A DNA stretch of 54,721 nucleotides, taken from contig MQRK01238145.1 of assembly GCA_001938485.1 (NCBI GenBank), positions 1 through 54,721 of the forward strand, given 5' to 3'. The first letter of the stretch is position 1, and every line of letters starts with the position of its first letter. This document shows positions 41,511 through 41,933 of this stretch, piece by piece. Source of the DNA: Girardia tigrina. Its lineage: Eukaryota. The notes beneath the pieces are model-generated. The model was not told where the DNA came from. It saw only the letters and a program-made list of their open reading frames with translations, and made no database searches. Made by a program: the position numbers and the translations under genes.

Positions 41511-41933
41511 TGTGAGGAATATTTTTGAATGATGTTTATTGTGTGTTGTTTGGTATGTTGTTTTAGGATTGTGTTTCTCCCACCCAGATGGAAGATTGAT
41601 ATTTTAAATATTTTAAAACGTTGGGTTATTTAATCAATTATGAAAATTTAAACAACTAATTTTAAAATTAAATTAATATTTCATAAATAAAATTTTAATA
41701 ATAATTTTCTTAAAATAAATAAAATTATTTTAAATTTAAAGTATAAATTATTTTTGAAATAATTAAATTGTAATTTAAATTTGTTTGAATAGTAAGACGT
41801 TAAAGAATATTATTAAAGATTATCAATCAAGAAGGATGATGAGCTACGCAAGTTTTACGGAGAATTGTTCTAGTGGCAATTCAAATTGTGATATAAATAA
41901 ATGTAAAGAATACCCAATTAATGTTCTTAATAG
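41511..41933 (+). repeat. Bipartite cassette family, copy E
   Basis: Collinear and near-identical to 2529-2953 in module 1 and spacer; TATCAATCAAGAAGGATG at 41821. Confidence 0.92.

Follow-up and report, generated by a model that had tools for sequence, protein, structure and literature searches.

Ty1 is a copia-type element, in which integrase is encoded before reverse transcriptase (RT). In Ty1 of Saccharomyces cerevisiae, gag begins within the 5′ long terminal repeat (LTR), according to the available part of PMC3522557. In Ty3, the first 36 residues of the capsid adopt no defined secondary structure and extend outward along the helices of the capsid (PMC6525542, available text), and in plants LTR conversion is described as common in the accessible portion of PMC7251063. 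No published description of a Gypsy gag starting in the LTR was found in the literature, which we covered in part; this is a weak absence.

We analysed a stretch of 54,721 nucleotides from Girardia tigrina (assembly GCA_001938485.1, contig MQRK01238145.1), hereafter the window, which holds five copies, A to E, of related repeats. A reading made from the sequence alone had singled out the last part of copy E, module 2, as a hypervariable short peptide gene. We consider it likely that module 2, the 3′ end of a Ty3/Gypsy solo LTR, serves in full elements as a loosely constrained N-terminal leader of Gag and carries a predicted polyadenylation signal.

An abundant Ty3/Gypsy LTR

The repeat is the LTR of a very abundant Ty3/Gypsy (Metaviridae) retrotransposon. 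It was searched for in the 1.43-Gb genome, and the best 40 of 2,508 candidates were scored; apart from the self match, these are 93-95% identical to 41511-41932 and have common ends. The first 21 bases of copy E have at least 2,186 exact matches in the genome. From 59 loci examined, 53 unique ones were retained, nine of which adjoin a primer-site motif (three) or a purine tract (six), and 44 neither. A 5-bp target-site duplication agreeing at four or more bases flanks 37 of these 44 copies (32 perfect, five with four of five), and none of the other nine. Copies E, B, A and D of the window are solo LTRs, and copy C is a 5′-truncated solo LTR (Table 1).

The primer-binding site, TGGCGACCA(CG), lies directly after the LTR and is complementary to the 3′ end of tRNA-Arg plus CCA; the tRNA-Arg genes of this genome end in CGTGGTCG. 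The match is 9 nt long in the E type and 11 nt in the D type, and 275 matches to the LTR/primer junction were found in the genome. At three E-type junctions (L090, L091, L096), the primer site is directly followed by a CGACCACG-like repeat of that complement. The tRNA-Arg genes occur in tandem arrays with a spacing of about 429 bp (L270, on G000:C199729, and G000:C240781), and ARAGORN gave the anticodon GCG for two of the five that it called (L266, L270). On the other side of the element, the same purine-rich motif, a polypurine tract, stands just upstream of six of the 53 LTR copies.

Nearly all copies have TG...TA termini and not the canonical TG...CA. Because some Metaviridae are known to depart from canonical termini (PMC3601003, in the part available), such ends do not exclude Gypsy membership. 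Every LTR family seen terminates in TA (mostly TAATA), and the terminal A is the A of the junction ATG described below.

The interior of one element, L093, has Pfam domains in Gypsy order, zf-CCHC (weak, below the cut-off), RVT_1, RT_RNaseH_2 and Integrase_H2C2, in frames spanning 2735-9175 and followed by an LTR at 9548. That of L092 has an rve domain, and a protease was found in RT homologues (P0009 and others). Integrase thus follows RNase H, and does not precede RT as in Ty1/copia. In a similarity ranking, not a tree, the best PDB matches of the RT were 4ol8 (E = 5e-34) and the Ty3-G Gag-Pol structure 7q5b (E = 3e-33), and its closest matches overall were metagenome proteins with 54-90% identity. 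Gag has retrotransposon Gag, Ty3 and Arc capsids as neighbours, by weak matches.

On the strength of the fixed ends, the target duplications, the primer site and the purine tract, we dropped an exon/intron reading of both modules on either strand, a WW-like minus-strand frame in module 1, and a DNA transposon or Helitron.

Table 1. Coordinates of copy E, its parts and the other LTR copies in the window
Feature	Position	Strand	Remarks
Copy E, Ty3/Gypsy solo LTR, 422 bp, TGTGAG...TTAATA	41511..41932	+	Sharp ends common to genome matches; haplotypes
Left target-site duplication of copy E, TGAAT	41506..41510	+	4/5 bases agree with right copy
Right target-site duplication of copy E, GGAAT	41933..41937	+	
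Module 1, 5′ part of putative U3	41511..41625	+	
AT-rich spacer, remaining U3 and probable promoter	41626..41810	+	Many indels between lineages
TATAAA, candidate TATA box	41742..41747	+	
Module 2, 32-codon frame, likely Gag N-terminal leader	41836..41931	+	In frame with gag in 5′ LTRs
AATAAA, candidate polyadenylation signal	41896..41901	+	36 nt before last base of LTR; codes Asn21-Lys22
Last LTR base, A	41932..41932	+	In 5′ LTRs, A plus TG of primer-binding site gives second in-frame ATG
Copy B, B-lineage solo LTR	2529..2952	+	Perfect (5/5) duplication GCCAT
Copy A, solo LTR, more distant family	1592..2035	+	
Copy C, older solo LTR, 5′ end missing	19894..20342	+	Open 32-codon frame 20246-20341
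Copy D, solo LTR, distant family	22534..22985	+	Perfect (5/5) duplication ATAAC; open 26-codon frame 22907-22984

Module 1 is the most conserved part of the LTR between lineages (net divergence 0.6-6.0%). In copy E, no ATG lies between 41640 and 41836, and no gag lies downstream of the module-2 frame. The leader frame of this copy is open from 41779 and continues for about 20 codons into the flank (41779-41997); the resulting 72-aa stop-to-stop frame is a chance LTR-flank fusion. Copy A has an open 32-codon frame (1939-2034), in which 29 of 32 residues match the N-terminus of the Gag homologue P0004.

Other features were seen around these copies. Copy B is inserted within a fragment of high copy number that carries a C..C..YIGETNRHLKTRISEH motif (flanks within 2483-3145), which is also found in the window at 31349-31660 and 30883-31002, has at least 150 genome matches, and keeps its motif intact in L307:2-667. 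A Pfam search of this fragment gave no match; we presume that it is GIY-YIG/Penelope-like. DNA-transposon relics, seen as inverted-repeat pairs with frames, are located at 4406-5573, 6467-8078, 17251-18206, 32627-33646, 44778-45110 and 47655-48324, and these frames look like Tc1/mariner and hAT transposases. The contig ends (54470-54721) in a 133-bp direct tandem duplication with 99% identity, possibly an assembly overlap. Elsewhere in the genome, an uninterrupted, GC-richer BTB-BACK-Kelch frame of 649 aa lies near a 3′ LTR (L094:3501-5447).

The contrast between copies B and E

The counts behind the claim of hypervariability were all reproduced. Copies B and E have five differences in 185 nt of spacer (2644-2828 versus 41626-41810), and 14 in the 96 nt of module 2 (2856-2951 versus 41836-41931), without any indel. 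In the frame considered, 12 codons are changed and all 12 alter the residue, with Cys11, Cys18 and Cys23 kept in both copies. The start codon, which had been taken as common to the two, is not: codon 1 of copy B has mutated to ATT. The second ATG of copy E (41839) is a rare allele, present in 9 of 140 copies.

For this pair, module 2 is indeed hypervariable relative to its spacer (Fisher P = 0.0006), but the excess disappears across 50 copies after correction for base composition. The G+C content is 8% in the spacer, 29% in module 2 and about 30% in the modules generally, and in every region rare alleles are about twice as common in G/C as in A/T columns (2.7-3.3 versus 1.3-1.8 per 100 sites per copy). 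Once this is corrected for, no region of the LTR is in excess; module 2 has 105 rare alleles for 93.6 expected (P = 0.26). Module 1, with 9 of 115 sites differing between B and E, does not differ at significantly fewer sites than module 2 (P = 0.13). The oddity of the pair is an unusually similar spacer: between lineages, the 50 copies differ on average at 12.2 spacer and 9.1 module-2 positions, versus 5 and 14 for B and E.

A contrast as strong as that of B and E was found in 9 of 3003 pairs among 78 copies, taken, as in our other copy samples, from best-match lists that are biased to young copies. All nine pairs go in the same direction and none in the reverse. In 11 whole LTRs chosen by their 5′ pattern alone, divergence was 6.5% in module 1, 13.7% in the spacer and 17.1% in module 2. 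The B/E pair is an outlier, with a mild but real tendency of module 2 to diverge faster between lineages.

The 50 copies (the 53 minus two truncated ones and one near-duplicate) fall into two lineages. Among the 14 differences, four mark lineages, two are rare alleles of E and eight are rare alleles of B, each of the rare ones being present in 1 to 6 of 140 copies. Copy E carries six B-type alleles at the diagnostic columns 41653-41703 and is E-type from 41732 on. It is a mosaic of the two lineages, with a B-type 5′ spacer and a switch between 41703 and 41732. The alternative of gene conversion or recombination in the upstream part therefore holds as far as the mosaic goes, but the switch is inside the spacer and not at the module-2 junction where it had been proposed. 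Copy B is, in addition, short of rare alleles in its spacer (2/19, P = 0.006; 0.27 when corrected for 50 copies); the mosaicism of E does not account for this shortage, which we attribute to chance or undetected conversion. Other mosaic LTRs were noticed (L030, L096b, L022); in L030 the switch is between 41818 and 41894, in the probable R region, as expected of a strand-transfer recombinant.

The pattern of this pair would then be made up of four lineage-marking changes and ten post-insertion mutations in a G/C-richer segment, next to a spacer that would look alike through recombination and that may mutate more slowly because it is 92% A+T.

How unusual is it that all 12 codons changed their residue? 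When the same base swaps were permuted at random, 12 of 12 changes were non-synonymous in 11% of permutations and the three Cys were kept in 22%; both conditions together with the absence of stops were reached in 1.2%, for a frame chosen after the fact. By the Nei-Gojobori method the 14 changes are 13 non-synonymous (N) and 1 synonymous (S) (binomial P = 0.25), in a frame where about 82% of possible non-stop changes are non-synonymous (227:49). Judged from these alignments, the amino-acid changes between B and E agree with ordinary drift plus recombination better than with selection on a toxin-like peptide.

The module-2 frame and its rate of change

Where a 5′ LTR meets the primer site, its final A joins the TG of that site to form an ATG that opens gag (MAT...). 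Among 29 junction copies, the module-2 ATG lies exactly 96 nt upstream of this junction in 21, and the leader frame is open in 19, versus 5 and 0 for the other two frames. A second sample was made of the first 30 of 834 junctions with a longer primer match; they belong mostly to other families, one of which is dominant. An in-frame ATG at least 60 nt upstream was present in 25 of these 30 (18 with an open frame), compared to 6 and 2 in the other frames. Its distance to the junction was -96, -78, -72, -69 or -66, with another -78 at a different hexamer offset, and all 25 in-frame ATGs have a purine at -3. Four Gag homologues from other assemblies (P0002-P0005, 56-70% identity) also begin 31-32 residues before MAT. 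Counter-examples exist: in L239, L240 and L250 no in-frame leader stays open, and in L240 a stop codon directly precedes the junction ATG. Of eight family representatives, two have frame +1 open as well; those of D, G and H were selected for their long open frames. We conclude from the reading frames that the module-2 frame is probably real as a coding frame linked to gag. The earlier view that this frame matters is upheld: in 5′ LTRs it continues in phase into gag, and its amino acids are far more variable than those of the capsid.

In two members of the G family (L236, L235), in-frame ATGs are found at -96 in addition to, or in place of, -66, suggesting, from sequence comparison, that the shorter leader of this family arose via a start-codon shift.

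Module 2 could instead be plain non-coding R/U5, with Gag made from the junction ATG only, and the upstream ATG and frame inherited as by-products of a TG-rich LTR end with a polyadenylation signal. The junction ATG is itself in good context. Asn21-Lys22 may be merely AATAAA at a fixed distance from the LTR end, as this motif is found 36 nt before the last base in seven of eight family representatives and 21 of 30 junctions. TGT and TGC are also found out of frame (six, versus five in frame, in the D representative). Since AATAAA and a GT-rich stretch are standard motifs of animal Metaviridae LTRs (PMC3601003, available part), part of the Cys, Val, Asn and Lys content of the leader may reflect RNA signals. 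On this account, however, it is difficult to see why the distances of 96, 78, 66 and again 78 nt are all multiples of three and every in-frame ATG has its purine, why indels are nearly absent from module 2 between lineages (gaps of 0-0.6 bases on average, compared to 4-69 in the spacer), and why, in four distant Gag homologues, an open frame begins at an ATG 31-32 codons upstream. We regard the non-coding account as rather unlikely, though it is the most serious competitor of the translated leader.

Transcription would start about 30 nt after the TATAAA at 41742, and, given this start, the module-2 ATG would be the first AUG. Ribosomes would then read from the leader through the LTR end and the primer site into the capsid, and leaky scanning may yield a shorter Gag from the junction ATG. 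RNA was examined as assembled contigs from six of 18 listed runs. Two leaf-litter RNA runs, from one study, contain LTR pieces, and one contig (X6 record 29) joins module 2 and gag. No loose poly(A) end was seen among the RNA contig matches listed. Some contigs begin at 41774-41775, roughly 30 nt past TATAAA, as a transcription start would. We set them aside, since in X6 the contig shares 30 nt with its neighbour, as at a graph branch, and both runs belong to one study.

In an AlphaFold2 model of Gag from a nine-sequence alignment, residues 1-45 have pLDDT below 50 and helices run from 53 to 200 (mean pLDDT 61). With this moderate-quality model, Foldseek ranked dArc and Arc capsids first, weakly (E at least 0.06), and the Atlas neighbours of Gag were Retrotrans_gag/Ty3_capsid clusters. 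The leader may be a disordered arm whose frame must be kept and most of whose residues need not; by analogy, an arm running outward as in Ty3 is a plausible role for it.

The next question is how fast the leader changes. From 191 matches, 140 leaders were kept and 51 dropped (truncated, duplicated or with N). An ATG is present in 125, a stop in 14 and a frameshift in 12, so that 105 are intact and 35 broken. Cys11, Cys18 and Cys23 are kept in 121, 127 and 113 copies, Cys23 being nearly absent from the C lineage (1/16). Cys18 is invariant in nine of nine aligned leaders, which hints at some protein-level constraint.

These numbers bear on the proposal that module 2 belongs to an independent family of short Cys-scaffold peptides (effector, toxin or recognition-like), or to a small RNA with a variable specificity region. 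The retention of the three Cys, and the open Cys-containing frames of 26-32 codons in four of the five window copies, are what could be said for it. But the copies are LTR insertions with target duplications, an anatomy that already refutes a free peptide gene; within the element the frame is not closed by a stop codon but runs into gag or flank; and it is broken in a quarter of the copies (35/140) by loss of the ATG, a stop or a frameshift, with Cys23 nearly lost in the C lineage. Pfam searches with four leader peptides gave no match above the cut-off, and for the peptide of copy E no family was found at E ≤ 1; Rfam gave 0 matches at E ≤ 1, and no stable RNA fold was found (z = -0.06). We consider this proposal extremely improbable.

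Singleton (rare) changes in 127 indel-free copies amount to 72N:11S:4 stops, a pattern that is as expected for dead copies. Lineage-level changes are 24N:7S with no stop, where a synonymous share of 17.8% is expected; the zero stops in 31 changes are not significant alone (about 1.3 expected), and by codon position the changes are 7/15/9, without concentration at the third.

Net divergence between lineages was computed on 44 of 75 junction matches, with 120 codons of gag. It was 0.026-0.108 for leader pN and 0.003-0.130 for leader pS, compared to 0.000-0.003 (pN) and 0.016-0.154 (pS) for gag. In the deeper lineage pairs leader pN is below leader pS (0.044-0.108 versus 0.12-0.13), which again argues against non-coding R/U5, for which the near-neutral N:S of the leader frame would otherwise count. 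Across families, identity is 31-47% in the leader and 40-71% in the capsid. The leader is, by these sequence comparisons, far freer than the capsid, and not faster than neutral.

A translated leader under episodic diversifying selection was also weighed; such an arm, exposed on the capsid, might evade a restriction factor of the host or keep sibling lineages apart during assembly. The three youngest lineages, E, B and E′, have about 3-5 non-synonymous and 0.1-0.4 synonymous net leader changes, against about 0 and 2-3 over 100 gag codons, and leader pN exceeds leader pS among them; with about 17 synonymous sites, the bootstrap gave P = 0.047 for E-B and 0.002 for E-E′. The low identity across families points the same way, as does the outward course of the Ty3 N-terminal 36 residues (PMC6525542, available text). 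In ten of ten group pairs, net divergence between lineages is also greater in module 2 than in the other three LTR regions, but groups were assigned by similarity of the leader itself, which inflates leader divergence and favours a selection reading. Against selection, the pooled 24N:7S is at or above the neutral synonymous share. Leader pN is never significantly above linked gag pS, the interval of their difference including zero in six of six comparisons. And dN/dS of window pairs is 0.52-1.14, except for B-E, where 3.1 depends on one synonymous change. Diversifying selection, as claimed in the sequence-only reading, is thus not borne out. Stops and frameshifts are frequent and dN/dS is about 1, largely the outcome that this reading had itself set against its claim. 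We think a diversifying leader improbable. Equally doubtful is its extended form, in which a Gypsy lineage would produce a long Gag, starting at the LTR ATG, as well as a short Gag, starting at the junction ATG; the Cys-bearing arm would be an exposed capsid tag under diversifying selection among young lineages, and protein-level conflict would drive the evolution of U5/R.

Comparison with known systems

The signal that was flagged is in itself ordinary: one pair stands out in a family of thousands of decaying LTRs. Of interest beyond it is a probable Gag leader that is encoded by the LTR and drifts near-neutrally, with a further start codon at the primer junction. Should this leader be translated, polyadenylation region, integrase end and Gag coding would coincide in the terminal 66-96 nt of these Gypsy LTRs, as in yeast Ty1; standard LTR annotation would truncate Gag; and each solo LTR would leave a promoter and an open start-codon frame, raw material for new short or fused ORFs. 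The thousands of copies are a built-in neutral control, and offer a direct test of how a segment used as both RNA and protein evolves.

As in recombinant or gene-converted LTRs, copy E, L030 and L096b each mix two lineages; here, template switching and later conversion look alike.

Gag is predicted to have, like the Ty3 capsid with its N-terminal arm and like Arc, an unstructured N-terminal segment before the helical capsid region (PMC6525542, in the text available for Ty3). It differs in that its first 32 residues are LTR-derived and drift at near-neutral rates, and its fold matches are weak (best E = 0.06).

With Ty3/Gypsy the element shares a direct terminal repeat with short imperfect inverted ends, a 5-bp target duplication, a tRNA primer site and a polypurine tract, as well as the order gag(CCHC)-RT-RNaseH-integrase; the AATAAA near the LTR 3′ end and the GT-rich stretch of Metaviridae (PMC3601003, available part) are also present. 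It differs by its TG...TA ends, by a gag that appears to start inside the LTR and to read through the primer site, and by the second ATG built across the LTR/primer junction.

In Ty1, LTR end and primer site are protein-coding, and the open in-frame ATG of the LTR suggests the same layout here. The element differs from Ty1 by its Gypsy order, its Ty3-like RT, its Arg primer and its Cys/Asn/Ser-rich leader. To judge by its frames and domain order, it is Ty1-like in layout, yet not a member of the Ty1/copia group.
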